This document shows, piece by piece, positions 15,967 to 43,470 of a DNA stretch of 43,470 nucleotides; within the stretch, counting starts at the first letter, position 1; each line of letters starts with the position of its first letter. The stretch is from the NCBI GenBank assembly GCA_047611865.1, contig JBLFWS010000006.1:1-43470 (forward strand). Reading direction: 5' to 3'. The translations under genes were made by a program, and so were the position numbers. The notes beneath the pieces are model-generated. The model worked only from the letters and a program-made list of their open reading frames with translations, was not told where the DNA came from and ran no database searches. This stretch comes from Chlamydiales bacterium. GTDB taxonomy: Bacteria; Chlamydiota; Chlamydiia; Chlamydiales; JBDQID01.

Positions 15967-16050
15967 AAAACACCGTGTCATTTGTTCATCAACATCATGA
16001 CGAAAAGTGAGTTTTAATCCAAGTTGTTGGGCTTTTGGTCCAGGGAACAT

Positions 16051-16101
16051 TTTTGAACACGAAGGCTGCAAAGACCGTGAAGACCGCGAAGGAAGAAAAG
16101 A
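16051..16101. repeat. 9-bp-unit repeat, half copy of the element at 43263
   Basis: CACGAAGGC TGCAAAGAC CGTGAAGAC CGCGAAGGA AGAAAAGA aligns with 43263-43312. Confidence 0.75.
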
Positions 16102-17410: not shown

Positions 17411-18103
17411 CTAGCTTTGATTTGAAGGAAAGTCGGGCTGAGCCTCTGGGTGTGCCAGCTGAAATGCAGGGTTTTTTGAAAGGGTTTCATCAATACGACA
17501 AAGGATGGGAAATGCTGTCATGTCAACGCCATAGAGCCTGGCATTGTACAGCTGGGGTTGTAAAAACAGGTCTGCGGCACTTAGCTCATCTCCCACACAA
17601 TAGACGCCTGCCGTCTCAACTAGCATTTTTTCAACACCTTTCAGCCCCTTTGTAATCCACTTCATCGCCCAATCCCTATCCTCTCCTTCGGGAAAGTCCT
17701 TCAAAACAGCCCCGTTTTGTAGAGGCTGAATATCTGAAGCAATCATCTGTACAACTTGCCTCACAAGACTGCGTTGATACGGATCTTTTGGATATAATGA
17801 AGGCTCAGGCCGTGTTTCATCAATATATTCGATAATCGCAACCGATTGAGAAAGAACTTTACCGTCTATGCGCAACGTTGGGACTTTTCCCAAAGGGTTC
17901 AAATTGCAATATTCCCCCGTTTTTGCCTTAGAGCTTATACCGCGATAGTTGTAGTCAATGCTCTTTACGGCTAAAGCAATGCGCACCCGCCATGAGCAAC
18001 TACTCCGCCAATGGGAGTACAAATCTACAGATGATTCTGAAGCAAAAGAGGATCCCTGAATAAAAAATAATAGTGAAAAAGTGAAAATCAAAAGACGAAT
18101 CAT
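17411..18103 (-). CDS. maiA: Zeta-class glutathione S-transferase / maleylacetoacetate isomerase with a predicted signal peptide
   Basis: WRSSCSWRVRIAL, NPLGKVP, SQSVAIIEY, DIQPLQN, AHPEAQPD. Hydrophobic leader MIRLLIFTFSLLFFIQGSSFA. Confidence 0.85.
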   Translation of the reverse strand: MIRLLIFTFSLLFFIQGSSFASESSVDLYSHWRSSCSWRVRIALAVKSIDYNYRGISSKAKTGEYCNLNPLGKVPTLRIDGKVLSQSVAIIEYIDETRPEPSLYPKDPYQRSLVRQVVQMIASDIQPLQNGAVLKDFPEGEDRDWAMKWITKGLKGVEKMLVETAGVYCVGDELSAADLFLQPQLYNARLYGVDMTAFPILCRIDETLSKNPAFQLAHPEAQPDFPSNQS

Positions 18104-18152
18104 TCAGCTACTCTCCAAGCCTTAAAAAAAGCTGCGAAATCAACCATAAACA

Positions 18153-18362
18153 GGCGTTGTTGCATAACTTAATACGTTTACAATCATTTATTCAACCACA
18201 GAGAGCACCGAGAACACAGAGAGATAGAAAAATGCATAAAGTCTCTCAGAATATGCTATCAACTGATCTGTGATTTTTTATTTTCTCTGCGCCCTCTGTG
18301 ATCTCGGTGGTAAAGCATTAATCATAAGCCTCTTGTAGACGCATATTTTATGCAACAACGCC
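18153..18362 (+). mobile_element. MITE copy 1 (210 bp), IS5/IS903-like ends
   Basis: Perfect 15-bp TIR GGCGTTGTTGCATAA/TTATGCAACAACGCC. 9-bp TSD CCATAAACA at 18144-18152 and 18363-18371. No ORF. Confidence 0.93.
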
Positions 18363-18398
18363 CCATAAACACGTTTCTTCGCAGCTTATATAATCTCT

Positions 18399-20027
18399 CT
18401 AAATGCCTTCCAGATATGCAGATCTGAAATTAAGATGTCCTATATCGGATAGGTGAACATTCTTAACATTCTTTTGCTTCAGGAAGCAATAAGTGTAGAA
18501 AAAGATAGGCGCTACAGGCATTTCATCCATAAGAAGATCCTCGGCAATATGCATCTTTTCATTACGAATTGCTATATCACTTTCTTGTTTAGCTTGGTTT
18601 AAAAGCTCTCGGAACTCTTCGCTTTCCCATCCTGTGTTGTTCACACTGTCAGTTTTATGCTGAAAGATTTCGAGAAAATTGATGGGATCGCTGTAATCTC
18701 CAATCCAGCTGCCGTTGGCAATTTGGTATTCCCCATTTCTTCTCTTATCAAGAAAAACTTTCCCTTCCATATTGTCGAGTTCTACGTCCACGTTAAAAGC
18801 CTTCTTCCACTGCTGCTGGATGGCTTGAGAAAGTTTGTGGTGTCTGTCATTCATAGTGTAACTCAATGCAATCGGTGGTAGCTCAGATACTGTTATCCCC
18901 ATTTCATCAAGTCCTTCCTGAAACAACGCTTGCGCCATAGCCTGATTGTTATCTTCGAAATACGGATCATCCTGAAGGGCTATACTTTTAGGAAGAAATC
19001 CCATAGCTGGCATCTGCCCGCCCTGTAGCACATGCTCCACAATGGCTGCTCTATCAATAGCGTAGCTGAAAGCCTGTCGCATCTTCCTATTATTAAAAGG
19101 AGCTTTTTCTACATTGAAACGAAAAAAGTGCGTTCCAAGAGCAGGTGTGATATGCAGTTCACCAGAATCCTTCAAGGCTTGAATCGCGTCTGCAGGAATG
19201 ATGGATATAGGAGATCCTGCCCAGTCTAAATCGCCCACTTCAAACATAGACAATTCTGTGGGCTCATCAACCATGATTAAATGAATCTTATCAAGAGTTA
19301 CAGAGTCAGCATCATAATAGTTTAAATTTTTACTCACGACTATTTCGTCGTGAATTTCCCATGAAGACAAAACAAAAGGGCCATTACAAAGTAGATCTTT
19401 CTCGGCATTTTTGCTCCAATCAGGGTGTTGGATGTCGTGCTGTCGAGATATTGGCGAAAAAGGTGGCAAGGCGGTCAACTGTAAAAAGAATGCTGCAGGA
19501 GCTTCTAGCTCTACAACTAAGGTACGATCATCGATAGCTTTGATACCTATTTCATCGATTGAAGCTTCTGCTTTGGCAACTGCCTGAGCGTTTTTGATCA
19601 AATAGAAGGCATGAGCATATTCAGAGGGGAATTCCGGATTTAAAATACTTTTCCATGTATATTCAAAATCGTACGCCGTCAATTGAGTATCATCAGACCA
19701 TTTGCTTTCTCGAAGGTGAAAGGTGTAGACTAACCCATCTTCCGAAATATCTATTTTCTTTGCTACCCCTGGAACAGGCTTCCCATCTTTGTCAAGACGC
19801 ATTAGACCTTCGTAGAGCATGTTAAGGACATTAAAGGTCGAGATATCTCTTGCTTGTCGAGGGTCCAGAGTACTCGGGTCCACCCCAAGGTTAATACTAA
19901 GTTCATTAGCCTTTGAAGAAGACTCTCCCGTTTTCTGGTCTTGCCCACAGGAAGTCAGGAATATACACAGACTAATAATCAGGAAACAATTTTCACGTAA
20001 GGAGATTCTGGACACACTGTCCTCCAT
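18399..20027 (-). CDS. oppA: Oligopeptide ABC transporter substrate-binding lipoprotein
   Basis: Lipobox FLTSC. LYEGLMR, YTFHLR, WSD...TAYDF, NGPF, RQAFSYAIDR. No oppBCDF genes nearby. Confidence 0.9.
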   Translation of the reverse strand: MEDSVSRISLRENCFLIISLCIFLTSCGQDQKTGESSSKANELSINLGVDPSTLDPRQARDISTFNVLNMLYEGLMRLDKDGKPVPGVAKKIDISEDGLVYTFHLRESKWSDDTQLTAYDFEYTWKSILNPEFPSEYAHAFYLIKNAQAVAKAEASIDEIGIKAIDDRTLVVELEAPAAFFLQLTALPPFSPISRQHDIQHPDWSKNAEKDLLCNGPFVLSSWEIHDEIVVSKNLNYYDADSVTLDKIHLIMVDEPTELSMFEVGDLDWAGSPISIIPADAIQALKDSGELHITPALGTHFFRFNVEKAPFNNRKMRQAFSYAIDRAAIVEHVLQGGQMPAMGFLPKSIALQDDPYFEDNNQAMAQALFQEGLDEMGITVSELPPIALSYTMNDRHHKLSQAIQQQWKKAFNVDVELDNMEGKVFLDKRRNGEYQIANGSWIGDYSDPINFLEIFQHKTDSVNNTGWESEEFRELLNQAKQESDIAIRNEKMHIAEDLLMDEMPVAPIFFYTYCFLKQKNVKNVHLSDIGHLNFRSAYLEGI

Positions 20028-20123
20028 TTATTTGTACAAAAATCACGGGTGTTGTTGATACCTAAGATAAACATCTTTCGCAAGAACTTTAGAGAATGTG
20101 TCCCTCAGACCCGGATTGTCAGC

Positions 20124-21905
20124 CTATTTTGAAGGAACAAAATCGTAAGCTGTTCTAAAACCTAATGTCGGGTAACAATTTTCAGCCTGGTTGGCGTTGC
20201 GGTAGGACACCATACAGTGAAAGGCATCATACATCCACGCACCACCTCTAACAACTTTATATTTCTCACCAAAGTGAGGATTTTCTACTGAATTCCCTGG
20301 ATAAGCCTCGTACCAACTTGAGGACCACTCCCAAACATTACCTGCAATGTCGTAAAGCCCATAACCATTAGCCTGGTATTGCATAACAGGAGTTGTGCTG
20401 TCTCCAGAAAAGTTCGCATTGCTTCTGGTAATGGTATTTCCCCAAGGATAGTGGATATCTTTCTGCCCTCCCCTTGCCGCATACTCCCACTCTTTCTCTG
20501 TAGGAAGGCGACGTCCTAACCATTCAGCATAAGCCAAGGTATCAGCATAAGTCACTTGAGTCACAGGGTGTAAGTCGAAATCCGGTGGTAGAGTTTGCCC
20601 CGTGGGGGAACGCCATGAAATTCCCGGAAGGACTTTCCATTGTCCATCTCCCCAGAGAGGAGCCCCTTCTCCCTCTTCAGCTTCCGTAACATATCCCGTT
20701 TCCTGAACGAAGCGAGCAAAGAGGCCATTGGTTACCGGCACTCTGTCAATATAAAAACCCAGTGTTGAGCATTCGTGCTGTGGCAAAGCATCTTCTCCAC
20801 ATTCCGCGCTACCAACGAAAAAACTTCCGGCAGGGATGTAAACCATCCCCGGAGGAGTCAGACTATCGCGTCCTTCTCTTACTTTTCCTCCTGCAGGCTG
20901 TCGAATAGGAATTTTCACCACATCCACAGTATCTTCTTCTCCTAGCCTTTCATCAAAGTTATTCTGTAATTCGTCCAAAAGCTCGCGAGCGGAGGTATAG
21001 CGCTTATCAGCGCTATACTGTAGGCATTTATGAACTACTTCATCCCAAAAAGGCGAAATATCAAATCTACGCTTACTTAAGGAAGGAAACTTGCCACAAG
21101 GGATCTCTCCAGTAAGCATTTCATAGATCATAACCCCAATTGAAAAAATGTCACTTTGTGCTGACGGCATTGTTTGGTTTCTTATCTCTGGAGCTCGATA
21201 ATCAAAAGGACGGTAAATACTTGTAAGGGCTTCCCTAAGAGATTTATCGCTGAGGTGTTCGGAAACATCCTCCCCAACTTTCTTACGATGGTAATAGTAC
21301 GCTAGTACAGCCGATTCATCAATGAGACCGTAGGGTTGAAAATCGCTCACGCATACTTCGAAGGGGAGCTTCCGCATTCTCATAGAAGCCCTATCACTTC
21401 TACTACTAAACGACACCAGAACATTTTCAGGCTTCAAATTTCCATGGAAGACCCCTTCATGGAGGGAATCTTTGTACTCTGCTGCGTAATGCAATGCCTC
21501 TAAAATTTGTATCGATATATGAAAGACCTGATGATGAGAGAGCCTTCTCCCATGCCGTTCTATATATTGCCGCAGGTTACAGGAACTGCCATCTCCGTCA
21601 TGGACATAATCTTTTAGCGTATACCAGAATTTCCCTGATCTACCGCTATTTATCACCCTATCAATATGGAAATGTGTCAGTTTACCCAATAGAGATATTT
21701 GAGCTTCTAACCTATCCAGCCATTCGATAGTAAAGTTGTCCAGCAAGGTCAGGGATTTCATAGCAAACTCTTTACCCAACACCCTACTAATCACATGGTA
21801 GGTTGTTCCAATAGGGCCTCGACCAAGAGTATTTAGCACCTGGTAGTCACCGATATAGTCTCCGTAACTGACCTCACCTAATACTTGAAAATTTGTATTT
21901 TTCAT
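20124..21905 (-). CDS. pkn1: Pkn1-like Ser/Thr kinase-fold + FGE-sulfatase domain protein
   Basis: N-terminal kinase fold (LGRGPIG, FAMK, HGNLKPEN, YRAPE, SDIFSIG). C-terminal FGE-sulfatase (PVTN, RLPTEKEWEYAARGG, GNVWEW, RGGAW, GFR). Same architecture as chlamydial Pkn1. Confidence 0.8.
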   Translation of the reverse strand: MKNTNFQVLGEVSYGDYIGDYQVLNTLGRGPIGTTYHVISRVLGKEFAMKSLTLLDNFTIEWLDRLEAQISLLGKLTHFHIDRVINSGRSGKFWYTLKDYVHDGDGSSCNLRQYIERHGRRLSHHQVFHISIQILEALHYAAEYKDSLHEGVFHGNLKPENVLVSFSSRSDRASMRMRKLPFEVCVSDFQPYGLIDESAVLAYYYHRKKVGEDVSEHLSDKSLREALTSIYRPFDYRAPEIRNQTMPSAQSDIFSIGVMIYEMLTGEIPCGKFPSLSKRRFDISPFWDEVVHKCLQYSADKRYTSARELLDELQNNFDERLGEEDTVDVVKIPIRQPAGGKVREGRDSLTPPGMVYIPAGSFFVGSAECGEDALPQHECSTLGFYIDRVPVTNGLFARFVQETGYVTEAEEGEGAPLWGDGQWKVLPGISWRSPTGQTLPPDFDLHPVTQVTYADTLAYAEWLGRRLPTEKEWEYAARGGQKDIHYPWGNTITRSNANFSGDSTTPVMQYQANGYGLYDIAGNVWEWSSSWYEAYPGNSVENPHFGEKYKVVRGGAWMYDAFHCMVSYRNANQAENCYPTLGFRTAYDFVPSK

Positions 21906-22774
21906 CTTATTCCCAAAAATACTGCTTTAAGACGTTTCAGCCACCACTTGACAATACGAAAGTGATTTAGTACTACCCACCACTTAAACGCAGCAATAAA
22001 TCCGAAACGTTTAAAAATCACACTCAAGGTTTCGTTACTATACCTGATGAGGTGTGAAGCTACTAATTCTCTTCTGTCATAGTCTGTGAGGACACGCTCA
22101 GAGATGGCTACGCGTAATTTTTCCACAAGCCGTAAACGACAAAAAAGGTCGTATCCCCCTCGGAGTGAATAGAGAGGTTGAAATTTCCCTACCTTTCTCA
22201 AAGTATCCACCCTAAACCAACATGACTGAATACTTGTTGGCTGCTTTCCCTTTTTGAGAGTTTCAACATTAAGAGGTCTTAGAAGGACCCATGGCTCTTT
22301 ATTATCGTTACGCAAGAGACAGGCACAATACACCAAGTCGGGCATTTCATTATCTATGGCAAGGCGCATCATATGCCCAAGTGCATCTTTGGAAACGTAG
22401 AAATCACCTGGAAAAAAGAAGCAGATGTAGGTTCCACGTGCTAAGGAGATACCCCTATTCATCATCTCATATAAATTATAGTCAGTGACCGTATAAACTC
22501 GAGAAATCGATTCATGATAGCTTTTGACGATTTGCATCGTTCTGTCTTTCGAACAAGCGTCCACCACAATAATTTCTAAATCTGGGTAGTTTTGAGACGT
22601 AACACTGCCCATAGTCAAGTCTATCGACTGTGCACTATTATGTGTAGGAATGACTATCGTCAAACGAGGATAATCATAAGTCTGCTCATGTTGAAGTTGC
22701 TCTTCAAGAAGGCTCCACTCAGAGGATCTCTCTTGGTTGGACTTCTTTTTTTTGACCTGATCCATAGACAGCAT
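21902..22774 (-). CDS. Glycosyltransferase family 2
   Basis: LTIVIPTHN, SVTSQNYPDLEIIVVDACSKD, MNRGISLARGTY. 4-bp overlap with the kinase gene. True start may be 22765. Confidence 0.85.
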   Translation of the reverse strand: MLSMDQVKKKKSNQERSSEWSLLEEQLQHEQTYDYPRLTIVIPTHNSAQSIDLTMGSVTSQNYPDLEIIVVDACSKDRTMQIVKSYHESISRVYTVTDYNLYEMMNRGISLARGTYICFFFPGDFYVSKDALGHMMRLAIDNEMPDLVYCACLLRNDNKEPWVLLRPLNVETLKKGKQPTSIQSCWFRVDTLRKVGKFQPLYSLRGGYDLFCRLRLVEKLRVAISERVLTDYDRRELVASHLIRYSNETLSVIFKRFGFIAAFKWWVVLNHFRIVKWWLKRLKAVFLGIR

Positions 22775-22845
22775 TGCTCCATCGCCAAAGACTCAAGATA
22801 GGGAACTTTGTCGATCTTGTCTAGTGTATACCGAAGCAAACTCTC

Positions 22846-24417
22846 TTAGCGGTCTTGTATATCCACCCTTGCCGAGAGAATTATCACCCCATTTTGTATC
22901 CATCCTTTTCGTGGATCTAGGAGAGTCTTGATAGGTAGAGTTTTCACACCAATGGAAAATTCGTCATCCTCAGGGTGTAGAAGTTCATCAACATCTGCTG
23001 CCCCATCTTCAATTTCCACCTTTTTTATGCTATGAAGATGCTTTCGGCAATCATGATAATTTATCAGAGAAAACTCTACGCTTATTTCCCGGTTTGCCTC
23101 TTCATCGCCTCCCCATCCATTAGCTCCAGCTTTAAATTTTAAATCATCCCCTTTCAATCCTAAGATCAAGTTTCCCTCATCGTCTCTTTCACAAATTAAC
23201 TTATAGGCACATTCTCCACCATTTTCTTGTTCGAAATGAACTTCTGGCGATTCAGACTCTACCCCCCGCTCTATTGTGTGTAGCCATCTTCGGGCATCAG
23301 AAACTTTCCAATAGTAGTTTTCTCCTACCCAGTAGCTTTGATCTATTTTTTCTCTAAAATGCTTTTGTTCAAACCCTGAAAAATTAAAGTCCGGATAAAA
23401 ACTACGATGTTGAAATTTCCTTTTTTCTTTTACTTCCTTTAGCCCAAATGATCTAGCCCCATCTTTTTTATATTTTCCACGAGTGATATCCGCCATTTCT
23501 GAATCACTTAGTAGAAACATAAAGTCCACTCTGGTCCAAAGAGTTTTCATGTCAATGTTTTCAAAACGTATACATTCCATTAGAGACACGCCATCAGCAA
23601 GGGGTTTTCTCAACACATCCCCCGGTAGCTCCAAGACCGTCGAGTTTTCTCTAACCCAGTCCCTTAGAACATCAAGAACCTGAAACTCGTCCTGAATATT
23701 TAGATCATCTTGTTCCAGTATCATCTTAAGTACTTCCGGGGAGAGCTTCATGAAGGATTCATGGCGCAGTACCTGTTGAGCATTTGCCAGTACGTAGGCC
23801 AAAATTTCATTATTAGCAGAGGATTGTGTGTTTTGAACTAAGGAGAGACAGTTTTCTACTCGTAAAGCTTTGGCTAAGTTTTTCCTGCATTTCTTTTGCA
23901 GGTTGCCAAGCATCCACATGTCAGCAAGATCGCAGATCTCAATGGCGTTGCTTTCGTTTAAGCTTATTTCTCCCGTGTAGAGATATTGAATAACTTGCCG
24001 TATCCGTTCATCTGAAGTGAAGTTCAAAGGAATGACTGTTTTCTCATCAGACTCTAAAAAATTATTTTCTTCTGAAAACATCGCTTTAAAGACAGGGCTG
24101 GCTTCTTTTAAAACTTCCCTATGAAAATAGAATGCTCTGCCTCGATCTAGAGAAAATACTCCATTATAAGGAATCCCTTCCCATTCTTTGGGTAAATCAA
24201 GAAATAAATTAGGCCGTAAAAGGCGAGCTTGCTGGGAGATCAAACTAACCCTTTTTGAAGGTCTAGCCGTAGATTCAGGCTCAATTTCCCGGAATGACCT
24301 TTTGGCTACTTTCCTGGTTTTTCCTTGTGAGGCAGATGACTCCATAGGACTATTATCTACAAAAGAGTTTTGAATGGGAAAAGTAGAATTGTTGGCATCA
24401 GCAATAGATAAGCTCAT
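22846..24417 (-). CDS. Eukaryote-like BTB/POZ-BACK protein with a C-terminal MATH-like domain (candidate effector)
   Basis: BTB: FHREVLKEASPVFKAMF, IQYLYTGEI. BACK: FMKLSPEVLKMILEQDDLNI.DEFQV, MECIRF. MATH-like end: LLDPRKGWIQNGVIILSARV. ATG 24417 has a GAGGA RBS. Confidence 0.82.
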   Translation of the reverse strand: MSLSIADANNSTFPIQNSFVDNSPMESSASQGKTRKVAKRSFREIEPESTARPSKRVSLISQQARLLRPNLFLDLPKEWEGIPYNGVFSLDRGRAFYFHREVLKEASPVFKAMFSEENNFLESDEKTVIPLNFTSDERIRQVIQYLYTGEISLNESNAIEICDLADMWMLGNLQKKCRKNLAKALRVENCLSLVQNTQSSANNEILAYVLANAQQVLRHESFMKLSPEVLKMILEQDDLNIQDEFQVLDVLRDWVRENSTVLELPGDVLRKPLADGVSLMECIRFENIDMKTLWTRVDFMFLLSDSEMADITRGKYKKDGARSFGLKEVKEKRKFQHRSFYPDFNFSGFEQKHFREKIDQSYWVGENYYWKVSDARRWLHTIERGVESESPEVHFEQENGGECAYKLICERDDEGNLILGLKGDDLKFKAGANGWGGDEEANREISVEFSLINYHDCRKHLHSIKKVEIEDGAADVDELLHPEDDEFSIGVKTLPIKTLLDPRKGWIQNGVIILSARVDIQDR

Positions 24418-24542
24418 AGTATTTATCCTCACAAATATTAGTTACATAACGAGGAGTTCTTACAGAAATATTCTTTTTTCCGGAAGGGATTTTATACTGA
24501 TCTATTCTTTAAAAAATAGATTACAAGACATTAGTATAGCTG

Positions 24543-24743
24543 GCCGTTGCTGCATAACTTAATACGTTTACAATCATTTATTTAACCACAGAGAGCACCG
24601 AGAACACAGAGAGATAGAAAAATGCATAAAGTCTCTCAGAATATGCTATCAACTGATCTGTGATTTTTTATTTTCTCTGTGATATCGGTGGTAAAATGTT
24701 AATCATTAGCCTCTTGTAGACGTATGTTTTATGCAACAACGCC
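24543..24743 (+). mobile_element. MITE copy 2 (201 bp)
   Basis: Near-identical to copy 1, with one internal 9-bp unit missing. Left TIR GCCGTTGCTGCATAA has 2 mismatches. 9-bp TSD GTATAGCTG at 24534-24542 and 24744-24752. Confidence 0.93.
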
Positions 24744-24797
24744 GTATAGCTGCAATCAAGATGAACTAGAAAGTTCCTAAATCTGAATTATATTACC

Positions 24798-24826
24798 ACA
24801 CGGTGTGAAACCTTCTCACACCGTGT
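24798..24826. terminator. Hairpin, probable terminator of the 24843 gene
   Basis: Perfect 11-bp stem ACACGGTGTGA/TCACACCGTGT just past the stop codon. Confidence 0.6.
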
Positions 24827-24842
24827 TTTAAAAAACTCATAC

Positions 24843-25399
24843 TCAGGGTAAGACAACCCACTGATGATGCCCTAATGGAGGAGAATCAATAGTCTCAAAC
24901 ATATCTACATTTATTTTTAGAGCAAAAGAAAGAGCTTCTCTTAAAGGCTCACCTAAACTTTCCAATTCAAGCTCATCAAAATCAAAGCTTTCAAAATCCA
25001 ACCCTTTAGAATCTTCTTGAACAAACTCTTGCGTAATAACTGTTCGTTTACTTTCAACGGTATCTATTCTTTTCCAGGTCTGACCATCCCTCTGAACCGG
25101 ATACAGTCTTACGACAGGAGTAATTTTTGTGTGCATGTCAATTTCAAATATAGCTTTAGTAATATGCCCGTCTCGACTTTGAGCAGAGAGCCACTCCCGC
25201 ATATTTTCTTCCAAACGAGTAGAAAAAGAGGAAAACTGACAATCTCCAGCAAAAATAATTCTCTCTGCACTAGTTGTTATTTTATCTGTTATTTCTTTCC
25301 AGCGCTCATCCCTTGCATGGTCTTGCTGTACTCTCCGCAGGGAGGAATTTCTTCTAAAGTTTGATCCATGACACTTTTATGCTCAATATTTGAACTCAT
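24843..25399 (-). pseudogene. Hypothetical protein, apparently frameshifted near the 5' end
   Basis: The 123-aa ORF frame stays open about 54 codons upstream of its TTG with no ATG. An RBS-preceded ATG at 25399 (MSSNIEHK) is one base out of frame. Confidence 0.5.
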
Positions 25400-25640
25400 T
25401 TGACATTCCCTTAGGTTATTTTTTTAATATTTAATAGACGGGTAGAAAAATAACACAAGGCTCATTTCCCTTCCATTGCTCGGCTGTAAATAGAATTATT
25501 ATTCCCGCAGCAAGCAGACGGGATATTCAAAATTAACTGATGACAGTGCATCCTTTTTTTTTGAAAAAGCTGAAATGTGCAAGATTTCTTAAAATAAAGG
25601 AGACTTCTTTCTATCTATAAGCCACCCTCATGATGCTTAC

Positions 25641-25669
25641 TTGATATAAAAAGAATTTCCAGTTAAATT
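25641..25669 (+). promoter_or_regulatory. Putative sigma-70/sigma-66 promoter of glyQS
   Basis: TTGATA-N17-TAAATT, 37 nt upstream of the ATG. Confidence 0.45.
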
Positions 25670-25706
25670 ATAACGCTTTTAAGTCACTAAATATCGTGGA
25701 GATATC

Positions 25707-28700
25707 ATGATTACGTTTCAGGAATTTATTCGCAAATTGTCCACCTTCTGGGAAAAGCAAGGATGTATTATCCATCAAGGCTATGACTTAGAGGTAGGAG
25801 CCGGGACATTCAACCCTGCGACATTCCTGAGATGCCTGGGACCAGAGCCCTACAAAGCTGCCTACGTTGAGCCTTCACGCCGTCCCACTGACGGACGTTA
25901 CGGCGACAACCCCAACCGTGTACAGCATTATTTTCAATACCAGGTGGTACTCAAGCCCTCACCTCCCAATATCCAGGATCTCTACCTGAAATCTCTTGAA
26001 GCTATTGGACTGTCTCTCAAAGAACACGACGTACGTTTTGTCCACGACGACTGGGAATCCCCCACTCTTGGAGCCTGGGGTTTAGGCTGGGAAGTCTGGA
26101 TGGATGGAATGGAAGTCACCCAATTCACCTACTTTCAATCTGTCGGCGGAGTTAACTTAAAGCCTATTACTGGAGAGCTTACTTACGGCCTCGAACGTCT
26201 TTGTATGTATTTACAAAAGGTCGACAGTATCTTTGATTTGCAATGGAATGACGAACTCACTTATGGCGACATCTACCACCGCAACGAAGTTGAATGGAGT
26301 GGCTACAACTTTGAGCATGCCTCAGTAGATATGTGGTGGCGTCACTTCCAGGATTATGAGGCTGAAGCCAAGCGCTTGATGGAAGCAAACCTTCCGCTTC
26401 CAGCCTATGATTTTGTAATGAAAGCTTCTCATGCTTTCAACATCCTTGATGCCCGTGGAGTAATTTCCGTAACTGAGCGTACCGGTTATATTGCTCGTAT
26501 CCGTACTTTATCTTGTATGATCGCTGAAAGCTATATCACTAGCAGAGAAGCGCAAGGCTTTCCCCTTATCAGAAAGCATAAGAAGACGCCTCTAGCTCAA
26601 GCCCCAAAGCTTGATGCCAGCAGCCAAAATTTTGACGCAGAGAAAAAAGAAGATTTCATCCTTGAGATCGGCTCCGAAGAGTTACCTGCCACTTTCGTTC
26701 CCATTGGATGCCGGAACTTGAAAAATGCCATCCGCAAGCTTCTTAATGATGAAGGCATCAACTACGGGGATCTGAATATTTACGGAACCCCACGACGTCT
26801 ATCCGTCATTGTTAAAGACCTTGCCGAGGGAAAGAAAGCACAAAGCAACGAACGCCGAGGTCCCCCTCTCAAAAGTGCTTTTGACGAAAAGGGTGAAGTA
26901 ACTAAAGCTGGTCAAGGCTTTTTCCGCTCCCTAGCTGTAGAGAACCCTACCCTCGAATCTATCAGAGAGGGCAAATGCCCAACAGTCAGCATCAAAGATC
27001 TTAAAGGTGTAGAATATCTTTTTGCTACCATCGAGATCCCTGGAGAAGCTACGATGCAGATCCTTTCTGAAAAGCTTCCTCAGCTAATATTAAATATTGA
27101 TTTCCCCAAAACCATGCGTTGGGGCGACCTAGACATCACTTATGCACGCCCTTTGCGCTGGATTCTCGCTCTTCATGGAGAGCAAGTAATTCCATTCGCG
27201 GTAGGTGACGTTCTTTCCGGAAACGTTTCTTCTGGCCATCCGCAACTATGCCCCGGTGATTTCACCGTTAAACATGCCAAAGACTATCTCTCTGTCCTCA
27301 AAGAAAACAAAATCATGGTGGATATTACCGAGAGAAAGAATAGCATTCTTGAACAGCTGGCTAACATAGAAAAAGAAAGCGGCAACATCGTTATTGAACA
27401 AGAAAAAGTCATCCCTCAGGTTCTTCACCTGGTTGAGTGGCCGATGCTAACAACAGCCACCTTTGATTCAGGCTTCCTCCGTGCTCCTAAGGAAGTTCTC
27501 TCATCTGAAATGGTTGAGCACCAAAAATACTTCCCTATCACTGATAAGGAAGGTAATCTTGTTAACCAATTTGTTATTACAGCCAATAACACCCCCTCTG
27601 ACAACATTCGTTCAGGAAACGTCAAAGTAATCTCCGCTCGACTAGCAGATGGTGTTTTCCTCTATGAGCAAGATCTGAAGATTTCTTTAGACGATTTCAA
27701 CGAAAAGCTGAAACAAGTCACTTTCCAAAAAGAATTAGGAAGCGTTTACGCCAAAGTCCAGCGCCTGATATCCAATGTCAAAGTTATCCACAATCTACTC
27801 GATATTGCGGATCTAGATAAGACGCTCCGTGCAGCGGCCCTTTGCAAAGCCGACCTAGCTTCTGAACTCGTAGGCGAATTTCCCGATCTCCAAGGTATCG
27901 TTGGAAAACTATATGCTACAGCACAAGGCGAAGACCAGGAAGTCGCCCAAGCTATCGACGAGCATTGGATGCCTCGCGGAGAAAATGCCCCTTTACCAAA
28001 GAATCCTTCTGGCATTATCGTCAGTCTATCCGAAAAAATAGACAACCTCATCAGCTGTTTTAGCATAGGTCTAAAGCCCACATCATCGAGTGACCCTTAT
28101 GCCTTACGCCGACAAGCCCTTGGAATCATCAAAATACTAATCCAGGGAGAACATCGCCTTCCCCTTGATAACGCAATGCGTGGTTGCTATGAATCATTTT
28201 GCCTGGACATCCCTGACGAAACGAAAAAAAGCTTGAGTAGTGCTGACGAAGTGCTCGAAGAAATTAAAGCTTTCTTTGAAAACCGGATTAAAAGCGTCTT
28301 TCAGGATTTTGGCCTCGAAAAAGACGAAATTGAAGCCTCCCTCTCTTCTGGTTTCAACGATATATACGATACGTTCTGCCGCGCCAAAGCTTTGCACAAC
28401 TTTCGTAAGACTAATGAGAATTTTCCTCAGCTTTACGAAGTCTATCGCCGTGCAAAGGGTCAGCTCGCCAAGCAAGAAACCGCAGTATTCTCAGAAAGCC
28501 TTCTTCAAGAGGAAGAAGAAAAAGCTCTCCACCAAAAGCTTGTGGAAGTGGAAAGCTCTTTAGAGCAAACCATTACGACATATGATTACGACAAAGCCTA
28601 CAAGCTTATTGCCGAAATCCAGCCACACCTTGCCACCCTATTCGACACAGTAAGGGTTCTTGCTGACGAAAAAGACTTACGCCTAAACCGCCTGGCTCTT

Positions 28701-28790
28701 GTGCGCAGAGTCTTCGTACTCTTTGAAATGCTTTTGGATTTTGGAAAGTTACAGGAAAAAGTACGAGGCAATAAAGCTGCTGCCCTATAA
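25707..28790 (+). CDS. glyQS: Glycine--tRNA ligase, fused alpha/beta subunits
   Basis: Alpha: [34 protein letters not shown]. Continues in frame into beta: [25 protein letters not shown]. The fusion is typical of Chlamydiae and plant organellar enzymes. Confidence 0.97.
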
Positions 28791-28874
28791 AAGGCATACT
28801 AGACTAAGAGCAAATTAAGGGGTGTAGTTCCCTTGATTTGGTGATTATTGGGTTCTGTAATTCATATGTTCTTA

Positions 28875-28905
28875 GGCTTTGTTGCGCAATTGGTGCAACA
28901 AAGCC
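28875..28905. repeat. 31-bp palindrome with IS903-type ends
   Basis: GGCTTTGTTGC-GCAATTGGT-GCAACAAAGCC, 18 bp from MITE copy 3. Confidence 0.6.
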
Positions 28906-28923
28906 ACATAATAGCATAAGTCC

Positions 28924-29114
28924 GGCGTTGTTGTATAAAACATGCGTCTAAAAGAGGTTTATAATTAAAATTTTACCACCGAGAGCACAGAGGACTCAGA
29001 TCAGTTGATAGCATATTCTGAGATACTTTATGCATTTTTCTATCTCTCTGTTTTCTAGCTGCTCTCTATGGTTAAATAAATGATTGTAAACGTATTAAAT
29101 TATGCAACAACGCC
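28924..29114 (-). mobile_element. MITE copy 3 (191 bp, inverted)
   Basis: Reverse complement of copies 1 and 2, about 19 bp shorter internally. TIRs GGCGTTGTTGTATAA/TTATGCAACAACGCC. TSD ATAAGTCC at 28916-28923 and 29115-29122 (9 bp if the terminal C is counted). Confidence 0.92.
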
Positions 29115-29223
29115 ATAAGTCCTCCCCTGGAACAATACTACTTCACACACTACTATGGATTGTTATATGTTAATTTACAGATATAACGGATAACTTATTA
29201 ATTTAATTACTAAAGGTTCCACC

Positions 29224-30834
29224 ATGAGCTTTAATTTTCATGCCGTACCCAATAAAACCAGTGAACGTGTTCCTACTTTTTTAACTCCAAATACTCCCCC
29301 CAGAGCCGTCCCTATTTTAAGAAGACCTGTTCTCCCTGATCTTCTACCGCACAAATTCCTCACAACAAGGCATTTTACTAAAAAAGCCCTTCCCCCGATA
29401 GTCCACTTAAATGTCTGCCTTATTGATATCAACAAGAGAATAAATGTAAATTCCACCCGCCCTAGCGCTCATCATGCACTTCTAAAAGCACGAAAAGACT
29501 TAAGGCTTTTGAAGTCAAAAATGAAAACACTTTGCTTTGCTGGAAAGCCCCCTCAAATAGCTGAAGAAAAAAGATCCACGCGAAATCAGAAAGAAAAAGA
29601 GACTTTAGAAGATACGAGGTTCAGACACACTACTCACGTAGAAATGCCTCCCGTTAGACCCTACTCAAAATTCCTCCCCACCACAGCTCCCTCTAGTCTC
29701 CTTACAAATGATAGTTCAACTTTGGAAGAAGTCAATTTTCTCAATGCATCACCCAAGTTTATTTCCAAAGCAAAAAAAATCAGAATGAATATGAAACAAA
29801 TTACAGCGATCATAGAGTTTGTTAATGAATTTGAAATATGCCCTTACAAACCCATTTCATTAGAAAATGCGACCCACATCTCCAGAAGAGAAGCAGAAGA
29901 AATCAGAGGGTCAAAGCTTCCTTTTTCAATGACTCGCAGTTTAAACGAAGAATGGTTTGTTCATTTAAAAACGAAAAATGGTCCATTGCTTGGAGAAGGA
30001 AGCTTTAAGCGAGTTAAAACTTCTCTCTCTTATTCAAGTGGAAAAATTGTGGCAAACGCTACCGGCTACACTAGCAAGCCAGTAATTAGAAATGCCCTTT
30101 TGAGAGATTCTCATGTTGGAAAAATGTTTACCAGACAAACTGGGTTGGTTAGCGTTATCTCTTCCGTACAATACCGCGGCTCTTTAGGCCAAAATAAAAC
30201 CAGCATTTTAATGCCTTACTATAATATGGGAGACTTAAAATCCAATTTTGGCATGTTGAGTCCTGTAAACCAATTTAGAGTTGCAAAAGATATCATTGGG
30301 GGCCTCGCTACTCTACATCGATTAGACATTACACACCGAGATATCAAACCACAAAATATCTTCATAAAGCGAAGTAGGCTAGGTCTTGTATCAGGAGCTA
30401 TTGGTGATTTTGGAACATGCCACTTAAAAAATTTAGAAAATCCCCACACCCACGGCACTCCGGTATATCTTTCTACTGATCAAATGGTCGAAGGTGATGA
30501 AGAAAGAAATGCCTTAGTGCGAAAGGCTAGTGACGTATACGCTCTCGGTATTGTTATTTTAGAGTTATTTCATATGCCTTTACCTGAAATGCTAGATGAG
30601 AAAATAATCAAGACCAAATTCAGAAGTATCATCTCTTATTTAGGGAATAAATTTAACCTGACTGACTCCGAATCAGCAGAGTATAGAAAGTATCAGGCCT
30701 CTTTAAATGTTCTAAGATCTATGCACTTCGAAGATAAAAAAGAAGAGACCCTTGTGCGTTTAGCAACAAGCTGCCTGGACATCAATCCCTTAAACCGCCC
30801 AACAGCTGAAGACATGCTAGCCCAATTTACATGA
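29224..30834 (+). CDS. Eukaryote-like Ser/Thr protein kinase with a long N-terminal extension (candidate effector)
   Basis: LGEGSFKRVK, MPYYNMGDL, HRDIKPQNI, DFG, HGTPVYL, SDVYALG, RPTAEDML. The N-terminal ~190 aa are Pro/Ser/Thr/Lys-rich. No TM helix. Confidence 0.88.
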   Translation: MSFNFHAVPNKTSERVPTFLTPNTPPRAVPILRRPVLPDLLPHKFLTTRHFTKKALPPIVHLNVCLIDINKRINVNSTRPSAHHALLKARKDLRLLKSKMKTLCFAGKPPQIAEEKRSTRNQKEKETLEDTRFRHTTHVEMPPVRPYSKFLPTTAPSSLLTNDSSTLEEVNFLNASPKFISKAKKIRMNMKQITAIIEFVNEFEICPYKPISLENATHISRREAEEIRGSKLPFSMTRSLNEEWFVHLKTKNGPLLGEGSFKRVKTSLSYSSGKIVANATGYTSKPVIRNALLRDSHVGKMFTRQTGLVSVISSVQYRGSLGQNKTSILMPYYNMGDLKSNFGMLSPVNQFRVAKDIIGGLATLHRLDITHRDIKPQNIFIKRSRLGLVSGAIGDFGTCHLKNLENPHTHGTPVYLSTDQMVEGDEERNALVRKASDVYALGIVILELFHMPLPEMLDEKIIKTKFRSIISYLGNKFNLTDSESAEYRKYQASLNVLRSMHFEDKKEETLVRLATSCLDINPLNRPTAEDMLAQFT

Positions 30835-43193: not shown

Positions 43194-43245
43194 CAGCTTT
43201 TCCCCTCAGCTTTTACCCTCAGTTTTTACCCTCAGCTTTCACTCT
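43194..43245. repeat. Tandem repeat, 4 x 13 bp
   Basis: CAGCTTTTCCCCT CAGCTTTTACCCT CAGTTTTTACCCT CAGCTTTCACTCT. Confidence 0.8.
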
Positions 43246-43262
43246 ATTGACTCTTTTTATTT

Positions 43263-43470
43263 TTTTGACGCGAAGGCAGCGAAGAACGCGAAGGCCGCGA
43301 AGGAAGAAAAGAGGAGAGAAGAAGAGAGAGGAAAGAAAAAGGGAATAGTTTTACCCCAGTTTCCCCGAATAATGCCTTTCATTACTTTCTTGGCTTGCAT
43401 TACGTTTAAATATATTTACCTTACCTCCTCTTAAATACCTTCGTGTTCCTCTTCTTTTTCTCTCCTCTTC
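43263..43470. repeat. Long imperfect palindromic element with 9-bp units (probably truncated by the window end)
   Basis: CGCGAAGGC AGCGAAGAA CGCGAAGGC CGCGAAGGA, then a purine tract AGAGGAGAGAA. The complementary pyrimidine tract TTCTCTCCTCT lies at the window end. Confidence 0.6.

Follow-up and report, generated by a model that had tools for sequence, protein, structure and literature searches.

Is the shared orientation of three copies of a short repeat, each lying ahead of a gene, a regulatory signal or a chance outcome of transposition? This question is raised by a 43,470-nucleotide stretch of DNA from a Chlamydiales bacterium (assembly GCA_047611865.1, contig JBLFWS010000006.1), the whole of which is called the window here. 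It contains three copies of a miniature inverted-repeat transposable element (MITE), and the same end of each copy points at the start of a GST-like gene, a BTB gene or a protein kinase gene. An earlier note on this DNA described the copies as IS903-like and proposed that they may act as a portable promoter or regulatory site co-regulating accessory genes. Our analysis points to another explanation. In all likelihood, the repeats are copies of a selfish, non-autonomous MITE of the IS903 group that is moved in trans by DDE cut-and-paste transposition and kept where it is harmless, and their common orientation in the window is a chance arrangement.

The window repeats belong to a large MITE family

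The window is contig C6 of a draft genome (G000) of 3.59 Mb in 272 contigs, with 41.5% G+C. Genes were called with our own program, based on open reading frames (ORFs) and codon usage, which gave 2,846 genes and a coding fraction of 83%. A TLC ATP/ADP translocase is present (613 bits). This gene, the fused glycyl-tRNA synthetase gene (Table 1) and the closest kin of the resident mobile element (described below) suggest an environmental member of the Chlamydiota that is not among the listed pathogens. The MITE census was conducted by BLAST of the genome with the three window copies as queries. About 90 loci were found, 59 of them full length, which is far beyond chance; an exact-pattern scan of the genome contigs with 39 bases of one end (end A, defined below) gave 0 matches. 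Lengths range from 191 to 212 bp, with classes of 210 bp (n = 30), 201 bp (n = 14) and 191/192 bp (n = 4), and the window holds one copy of each class (Table 1). The median pairwise identity among copies is 94.3%. By BLAST, copies 2 and 3 of the window are 91% and 82% identical to copy 1, respectively.

Both 15-bp terminal inverted repeats (TIRs), GGCGTTGTTGCATAA and TTATGCAACAACGCC, were located at no more than three mismatches in 59 of 59 full copies. Within the window, two mismatches are found in the left TIR of copy 2 and one in a TIR of copy 3. Of the 59 copies, 33 have a perfect 9-bp target-site duplication (TSD), 15 have one with a single mismatch and 2 have one with two mismatches. The TSD of the other 9 copies is shifted or degraded, and several of these are one-base register shifts. 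The targets are AT-rich and roughly palindromic, close to ATTTAAAAT. Since the TSDs of the three window copies all differ from each other, these copies are independent insertions. The earlier note was correct on this point and on the location and 15-bp TIRs of the three copies. Its description of the ends as IS903-like also held, with the TIR matching that of IS903B at 13 of 15 positions and a 9-bp TSD at no more than one mismatch in 48 of the 59 copies.

The predicted fold of copy 1 is one long hairpin of -69.5 kcal/mol (z = -7.07), and none of 200 shuffled sequences was as stable. The Rfam search returned only sub-threshold look-alikes of miRNA precursors (21 bits where the gathering score is 211, and 20 bits where it is 110), as is seen with generic long hairpins. 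There is no ORF of at least 70 aa within any of the three window copies. Short, without a transposase gene, bounded by TIRs, flanked by fixed-length TSDs, dispersed, and matching a resident insertion sequence (IS) at their ends, the window repeats are best classified as a MITE.

The whole MITE was absent from the 40 related genomes searched, in which the word arm described below was the only part matched, and from 4 chlamydial metagenome-assembled genomes (MAGs) bearing a related IS. A search for empty sites in the only other genome of the same family (G001, 68% complete) gave one weak coding match, which was too divergent to use. The MITE repeats fragment the assembly. Nested mobile elements are abundant across the genome, and contigs end in them.

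A resident IS903-group element shares the ends of the MITE

The term end A is used for the end at position 1 of copy 1, and end B for the opposite end. End A carries ..GATTGTAAACGTATTAAGTTATGC.. and is the end that faces the gene start in all three window copies. When the genome was searched for the 15-bp end at up to three mismatches, 297 hits were obtained: 73 with an end-A interior, 75 with an end-B interior and 149 others, many of them chance matches. Several other element families carry the head GGC.TTGTTGC..., namely TIR-only palindromes, elements with CACTGAG arms and the ends of gene-bearing elements.

The earlier note had suggested looking for an autonomous IS5/IS903 transposase with the same TIRs, and an IS5-family transposase was found in an element with near-identical ends. 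Its ORF encodes 319 aa (G000:C57:17275-18234), scores 287.5 bits with NF033579 (IS5 family) against a cut-off of 140, and has hits to PF13737 and PF01609. The protein is 44% identical to the IS903B transposase over 96% of its length and 47% identical to that of ISVa2. The element begins with TIR-L (GGCCTTGTTGCACTA), followed by an array of CACAGAG-type words, the transposase gene on the minus strand, a spacer of about 70 bp, a GxxExxY gene on the plus strand, a second word array and TIR-R. Read inward, TIR-R is GGCGTTGTTGCATTA and matches the MITE TIR at 14 of 15 positions, and the word arms of the element are nearly identical to those of the MITE. The GxxExxY gene encodes 139 aa and scores 154.6 bits with TIGR04256 (cut-off 35) and 147 bits with PF13366. 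The inferred length of the resident IS is about 1,556 bp, and all its copies are at contig ends or interrupted by other insertions. A 659-bp internal-deletion derivative (C124:8474-9132) has a 9-bp TSD, CTGTTGAAC.

The best alignment placed end A of the MITE on the right end of the IS, and the end-B words on the words of the left end. The core of the MITE is unrelated to the IS, and the MITE differs in this from a simple internal deletion form of the resident element. Smaller elements are also present. Three TIR-only palindromes of 27-41 bp were found, one in the window (28875-28905) and the others at C37:9003-9043 and C22:14537-14563; the latter two have TSDs of 8-9 bp.

A second family has the exact MITE TIR together with CACTGAG-type arms (C82:1870-2349, C1:17666-17928, C49:13215-14722 and C135:3280-3662). 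Its member at C82 is a cassette with a GxxExxY gene, interrupted by one TAG, and no transposase. The member at C1 is a deletion form of 263 bp, flanked by the TSD ATTATTGAT. One member contains a nested IS (TSD GATGGATAC) and another a C-terminal remnant of a transposase.

An IS4-family transposase (NF033592, 156 bits) near a MITE-like end at C135:7723 was considered as a partner and rejected, as its element has its own unrelated TIRs (CCTTGGGGCTTTTCCCCATACG..), seen at C93:12408 and C159:~1048. At C135, the IS4-family element is nested in another element that shares just 58 bp with end B of the MITE. A PDB sequence search with the IS4 transposase gave nothing meaningful. The IS4-family element (C135:7723-9313, C93:12408-13190 and C159:276-1048) is itself interrupted by further insertions.

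Intact relatives of the probable parent element occur in Waddliaceae

The closest kin of the resident IS are in Waddliaceae and Parachlamydiaceae MAGs. A scan for GxxExxY proteins, which covered one genome per species, found 80 loci. Fifteen of these, in two Waddliaceae MAGs, have an identical 1,564-bp arrangement: TIR-L (GGCTTTGTTGCGTAA), words, a transposase 72% identical to the one described above, the GxxExxY gene, words and TIR-R. The 15-mer of this TIR-R is identical to that of the MITE, and perfect 9-bp TSDs flank 10 of the 15 copies. Degraded versions of the 1,564-bp element are present at four more loci (L121, L142, L149 and L173). The transposase had a match at E <= 1e-10 in 15 of the 40 relatives. 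The relatives also contain ordinary IS903-like elements of 1.04-1.19 kb, with neither words nor a second gene and with the ends GGCGTTGTTGCGTAA, GGCATTGTTGCATAA and GGCTTTGTTGCACAA; GGC.TTGT.G.. ends were seen at 4 of 5 such loci. Within one end family, the series is complete, from the autonomous IS through its deletion derivatives and a cassette that carries a gene to MITEs and stubs made of TIRs only.

MITE orientation is random and neighboring genes are mostly housekeeping

Orientation was tabulated for 51 full copies with both neighbors called. Thirteen of these have end A toward the start of the downstream gene and end B toward the stop of the upstream gene, and 15 have the reverse. Of the rest, 8 have divergent and 15 convergent genes on their two sides. 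The 13:15 split does not differ from an even one (binomial p = 0.85), and it becomes 10:15 when the three window copies are left out. Requiring that both flanking ORFs have at least 100, 150 or 200 aa gave 12:13, 10:12 and 8:8, respectively. The window copies do present the same end to the GST, BTB and kinase genes, as the earlier note said, at 49, 110 and 109 bp from the start (about 125 bp had been given for the BTB gene). As a signal, this pattern does not extend to the genome.

The positions of the insertions are not random with respect to gene ends. Sites between convergent genes were used 15 times, compared to 7.9 expected from intergenic length (about 1.9-fold), and sites between divergent genes 8 times, compared to 14.1 expected (about 0.57-fold). 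The convergent excess and divergent deficit are significant (chi-square p = 0.011), and a promoter donor would show the opposite.

The 47 start-facing neighbors are mostly housekeeping genes, such as those for RuvC, LGT, adenylate kinase, MnmA and 2-oxoglutarate dehydrogenase. Eukaryote-type domains are present in 5 of the 47 (BTB, Pkinase, IQ, SET plus ankyrin, and TPR), two of which are the window's own. Among the end-facing neighbors, 4 of 63 have eukaryote-type or effector-like domains (HEAT, two patatins and a cadherin-like domain), a comparison that was made at E-value limits of 1e-5 for the start-facing and 1e-8 for the end-facing set and without a whole-proteome background. The earlier note had named random orientation and a lack of enrichment for effector-like genes among the outcomes that would refute its proposal; orientation is random, and no such enrichment is visible in these counts. 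Single-sequence phmmer searches of the 2,846 calls matched about 14 kinase genes and one BTB gene, and among these matches a MITE lies upstream only at the window's kinase and BTB genes.

Proposed origin and spread of the MITE

We propose that the two ends of an IS903-group (IS5-family) IS resident in the same genome gave rise to the MITE. Each copy retains the 15-bp IS903-type TIRs and, inside them, the two CACAGAG-type word arrays of the parent, and these arrays turn the entire element into a long hairpin. The transposase gene and the gene for GxxExxY, a PD-(D/E)XK nuclease, would have been replaced by an AT-rich core of about 55 bp. An IS903-type DDE transposase, probably acting in trans, would cut at the TIRs, paste the element into AT-rich, roughly palindromic 9-bp targets and duplicate the 9 bp. 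The selfish element would then persist at nearly harmless sites, in intergenic DNA and above all at convergent gene ends, and it is presumably neutral for the neighboring genes.

Several points weigh against this reading. Mobilization in trans is deduced from the similarity of the ends. The resident IS was joined from two contigs (C57 and C100, with a 319-bp overlap at 97.8% identity) and does not exist as a complete copy in one piece, and only one full-length transposase ORF above the family cut-off is present in the assembly. The MITE also has a spacer of about 23-36 bp between TIR and words that is missing in the resident IS; therefore, the direct parent may be an unassembled sibling of this IS. 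With regard to orientation, about 31 partial or contig-edge copies were excluded from the table. End A lies closer to the start of a facing gene, at a median of 120 bp (n = 22), compared to 181 bp for end B (n = 25); the difference is not significant (p = 0.43), and the distances are approximate, since our gene caller takes the longest ORF as the start. End A may also contain a weak outward promoter that acts at individual loci.

The GxxExxY gene and hairpin words appear to form a widespread cassette

The CACAGAG-type word array is the sole part of the MITE found outside this genome. It is present in 12 of the 40 relatives, often in multiple copies. The GxxExxY scan also extends beyond the chlamydiae, as proteins 54-76% identical to the chlamydial one are encoded in MAGs of many phyla (loci L122-L200). 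At 32 of 57 GxxExxY loci of other lineages (among them Chloroflexota, Bacteroidota, Acidobacteriota, Planctomycetota and Proteobacteria), the gene sits between the arms of an exact inverted repeat of at least 10 nt, and 19 of these repeats are CACAGAG-like. An IS903-type transposase was found at 0 of the 57 loci. Occurrence across phyla suggests horizontal spread of the cassette.

CACAGAG arrays are present in the MITE, and the GxxExxY gene in the parent IS only; the MITE would be a gene-less derivative of a GxxExxY/CACAGAG cassette. We take these data to mean that a cassette of nuclease gene and hairpins arose long ago and is found widely, that an IS903-type transposon came to enclose it in some chlamydiae, and that the window MITE descends from this composite and has lost its genes.

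The word arms and the GxxExxY nuclease might go further and form a functional module that chlamydial IS903-type transposons have co-opted, for example by aiding excision, target choice or the retention of copies. We hold this idea as a speculative one with a low chance of being correct. If true, it would explain why word-bearing derivatives (59 full MITEs and other families) far outnumber the TIR-only elements, of which three were found. It would also give the first tractable mobility mechanism for cross-phylum GxxExxY/CACAGAG cassettes. The intact, recently active copies in Waddliaceae genomes provide material for a simple test of the roles of the hairpin and the nuclease. The interest of this locus lies in the parent element and not in the idea of a portable promoter.

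Alternative explanations

Another possible explanation is that the hairpin acts after transcription at some loci, as an RNase III site, an mRNA stabilizer, or a substitute or extended terminator. Post-transcriptional roles of this kind have been proposed for other bacterial MITEs and for repetitive extragenic palindromes (REPs), and such a role is compatible with a selfish element. The strong fold, the excess of insertions at convergent gene ends (15 of 51) and the short end-facing distances (medians of 96-115 bp) are in its favor. So is the position of copy 1, which was inserted exactly in the loop of an older terminator-like hairpin (10-nt stem) after the SBP_bac_5 gene; this stem could still close about the MITE hairpin. 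However, a terminator scan (GC stem plus T-run) found no site in or at copy 1, and purifying selection against promoter disruption explains the 3'-end excess equally well. Nor is the location of copy 1 the general rule. A stem of at least 7 nt across the insertion point was found in 5 of 50 reconstructed sites, compared to a permuted mean of 4.26, and the folding energy of reconstructed sites is the same as that of random intergenic windows (p = 0.44). On these values, a general target preference for hairpin loops or terminators was rejected. Overall, we regard a post-transcriptional role as unlikely, and it is the alternative that fares best.

The portable promoter of the earlier note fares worse. 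In this explanation, end A is an outward promoter or regulatory site (TT(G/A)AAT-N18-TAA(G/A)TT), and insertions upstream of accessory or effector-like genes are kept by selection. In all three window copies, end A looks toward a gene that starts 49-110 bp away, and 45 of the 59 copies have both hexamers at an 18-nt spacing. As the -35-like hexamer, 44 of the 59 copies have TTAAAT, and just one, window copy 1, has TTGAAT; as the -10-like hexamer, 29 copies have TAAGTT and 16 have TAAATT. Among start codons no more than 150 bp away, 13 are faced by end A and 9 by end B, but this split is not significant (p = 0.52). Both hexamers agree with TTGACA/TATAAT at only 3-4 of 6 positions each, and no promoter-like site was found inside copy 1 in a sigma-70-type consensus scan. 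The genome-wide orientation, the mostly housekeeping genes downstream, the presence of a MITE upstream of the window's kinase gene alone among about 14, and the depletion of insertions between divergent genes, where promoters lie, all argue against it as well. We consider this explanation very unlikely. Since there is no sign of a mobile promoter wiring together accessory or eukaryote-like genes, these repeats are best annotated as ordinary transposon debris.

Also very unlikely is movement of the MITE in the manner of REPINs, through its hairpin word arms and by the GxxExxY nuclease or a Y1 (RAYT-like) enzyme instead of the DDE transposase: the word arms shared with hairpin elements of relatives, the inverted repeats that bracket 32 of 57 GxxExxY loci, and the 8 PF13366 and 5 Y1_Tnp (PF01797) matches in the genome fit this idea, but in every well-preserved copy the words lie within IS903-type TIRs and a 9-bp TSD flanks the element, which is the hallmark of DDE cut-and-paste. 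Y1 HUH transposition (IS200/IS605) is not known to leave a TSD. The word-free TIR-only mini-elements also have TSDs of 8-9 bp, and where hairpins without the TIR head were read in relatives, they were not part of a structure bounded by TSDs.

Neighboring features in the window

The coordinates of the MITE copies and their surroundings are given in Table 1. The N-terminus of the GST-like protein, MIRLLIFTFSLLFFIQGSSFASE, looks like a signal peptide, as judged by eye only. End B of copy 2 faces the stop of a 123-aa ORF without a Pfam match. The 31-bp perfect-type palindrome near copy 3 is, by its ends, a minimal relative of the same IS903-type end family.

Table 1. Features surrounding the three MITE copies of the window
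Feature	Position	Strand	Description
MITE copy 1	18153..18362	+	210 bp, 210-bp subfamily; GGCGTTGTTGCATAA TIR at both ends; end A toward GST gene
MITE copy 2	24543..24743	+	201 bp, 201-bp subfamily; end A toward BTB/BACK gene
MITE copy 3	28924..29114	-	191 bp, 191-bp subfamily; end A toward kinase gene
TSD of copy 1	18144..18152 and 18363..18371		CCATAAACA
TSD of copy 2	24534..24542 and 24744..24752		GTATAGCTG
TSD of copy 3	28916..28923 and 29115..29122		ATAAGTCC; 9 bp with the terminal C counted
GST-like gene	17411..18103	-	Pfam GST_N; start 49 bp from end A of copy 1
SBP_bac_5 solute-binding protein gene	18399..20027	-	Stop 36 bp from end B of copy 1
BTB + BACK protein gene	22846..24432	-	Pfam BTB and BACK; start 110 bp from end A of copy 2
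Fused glycyl-tRNA synthetase alpha+beta (glyQS) gene	25707..28790	+	One 1,027-aa ORF; stop 133 bp from end B of copy 3
Protein kinase gene	29224..30834	+	Pfam Pkinase; start 109 bp from end A of copy 3
Terminator-like stem half	18129..18138	-	AAGCTGCGAA; partner TTCGCAGCTT at 18378..18387; T-run on - strand at 18123..18129
TIR-only palindrome	28875..28905		31 bp; two IS903-type ends, GGCTTTGTTGCGCAA / TTGGTGCAACAAAGCC; 18 bp from copy 3

Other features of the window were noted. The gene at 20124-21905 (minus strand) encodes a fusion protein of an N-terminal Pkinase and a C-terminal FGE-sulfatase domain (207 bits), and it is followed by a co-directional family-2 glycosyltransferase gene and then by the BTB gene. 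A second family of word repeats, made of 9-nt units of the CGAAGG/GTGAAG type, is present at 16050-16101 and 43261-43312 (also at 43195-43243), and the first two are 85% identical. The right-hand copy resembles one arm of a hairpin that continues past the end of the window. A tandem run of the CCCTCAGCTTTTA type is also located near the window end.

Comparison with known systems

In the literature searched, the titles and abstracts on MITEs and IS5-family elements in chlamydiae, on IS903, and on GxxExxY and PDDEXK_3 proteins, which include a paper on the Paracoccus mobilome (PMC3281130) and a superfamily survey, contain no description of MITEs in chlamydiae. In the same titles and abstracts, ISfinder being outside the scope, no IS903-type IS carrying a GxxExxY gene is described. 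That an IS903-type transposon can carry within it the widespread cassette of GxxExxY nuclease and CACAGAG hairpins therefore appears to be a new finding.

The closest known system is IS903B (plasmid NZ_CP047284.1), which has the ends GGCTTTGTTGAATAAATC and a 9-bp TSD. It shares the terminal repeat GGC.TTGTTG.ATAA and the TSD length with the MITE, and its right end is identical to that of the Waddliaceae element at 16 of 18 positions. IS903B and the chlamydial IS both encode DDE transposases of about 310-320 aa, and the distance from the transposase stop to the end of the element matches between the two (54 vs 56 bp). IS903B has 1,057 bp and one gene, compared to about 1,556-1,564 bp for the chlamydial parent, which unlike IS903B has a second, divergently transcribed gene, GxxExxY, and CACAGAG word arrays inside both TIRs. 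The window elements differ from IS903B in having no gene at all.

In being short, non-coding, bounded by TIRs, flanked by TSDs and multicopy, the window elements are like IS-derived MITEs, mobile insertion cassettes and transporter IS of other bacteria. The mobile insertion cassette pattern is seen in this genome in the TIR-bounded GxxExxY cassette without a transposase at C82 and its 263-bp deletion form. Simple IS-deletion MITEs differ from the window MITE, in which additional spacers separate the TIRs from the words and the core does not match the IS.

The Correia elements of Neisseria are promoter-bearing MITEs. The window MITE is similar to these in being a TIR element of about 100-200 bp that lies near gene starts and would form a hairpin in RNA. 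In contrast to Correia elements, it has neither an orientation bias nor an outward promoter of consensus grade, and its TSD and partner family are different.

The hairpin arms of short tandem CACAGAG-type units are reminiscent of REPs and REPINs. Unlike in REP/REPIN-RAYT systems, the hairpin of the window MITE is enclosed by IS903-type TIRs and 9-bp TSDs. The gene-bearing chlamydial form is further set apart, both from these systems and from the GxxExxY/CACAGAG hairpin cassettes of other lineages, by also encoding a DDE transposase.

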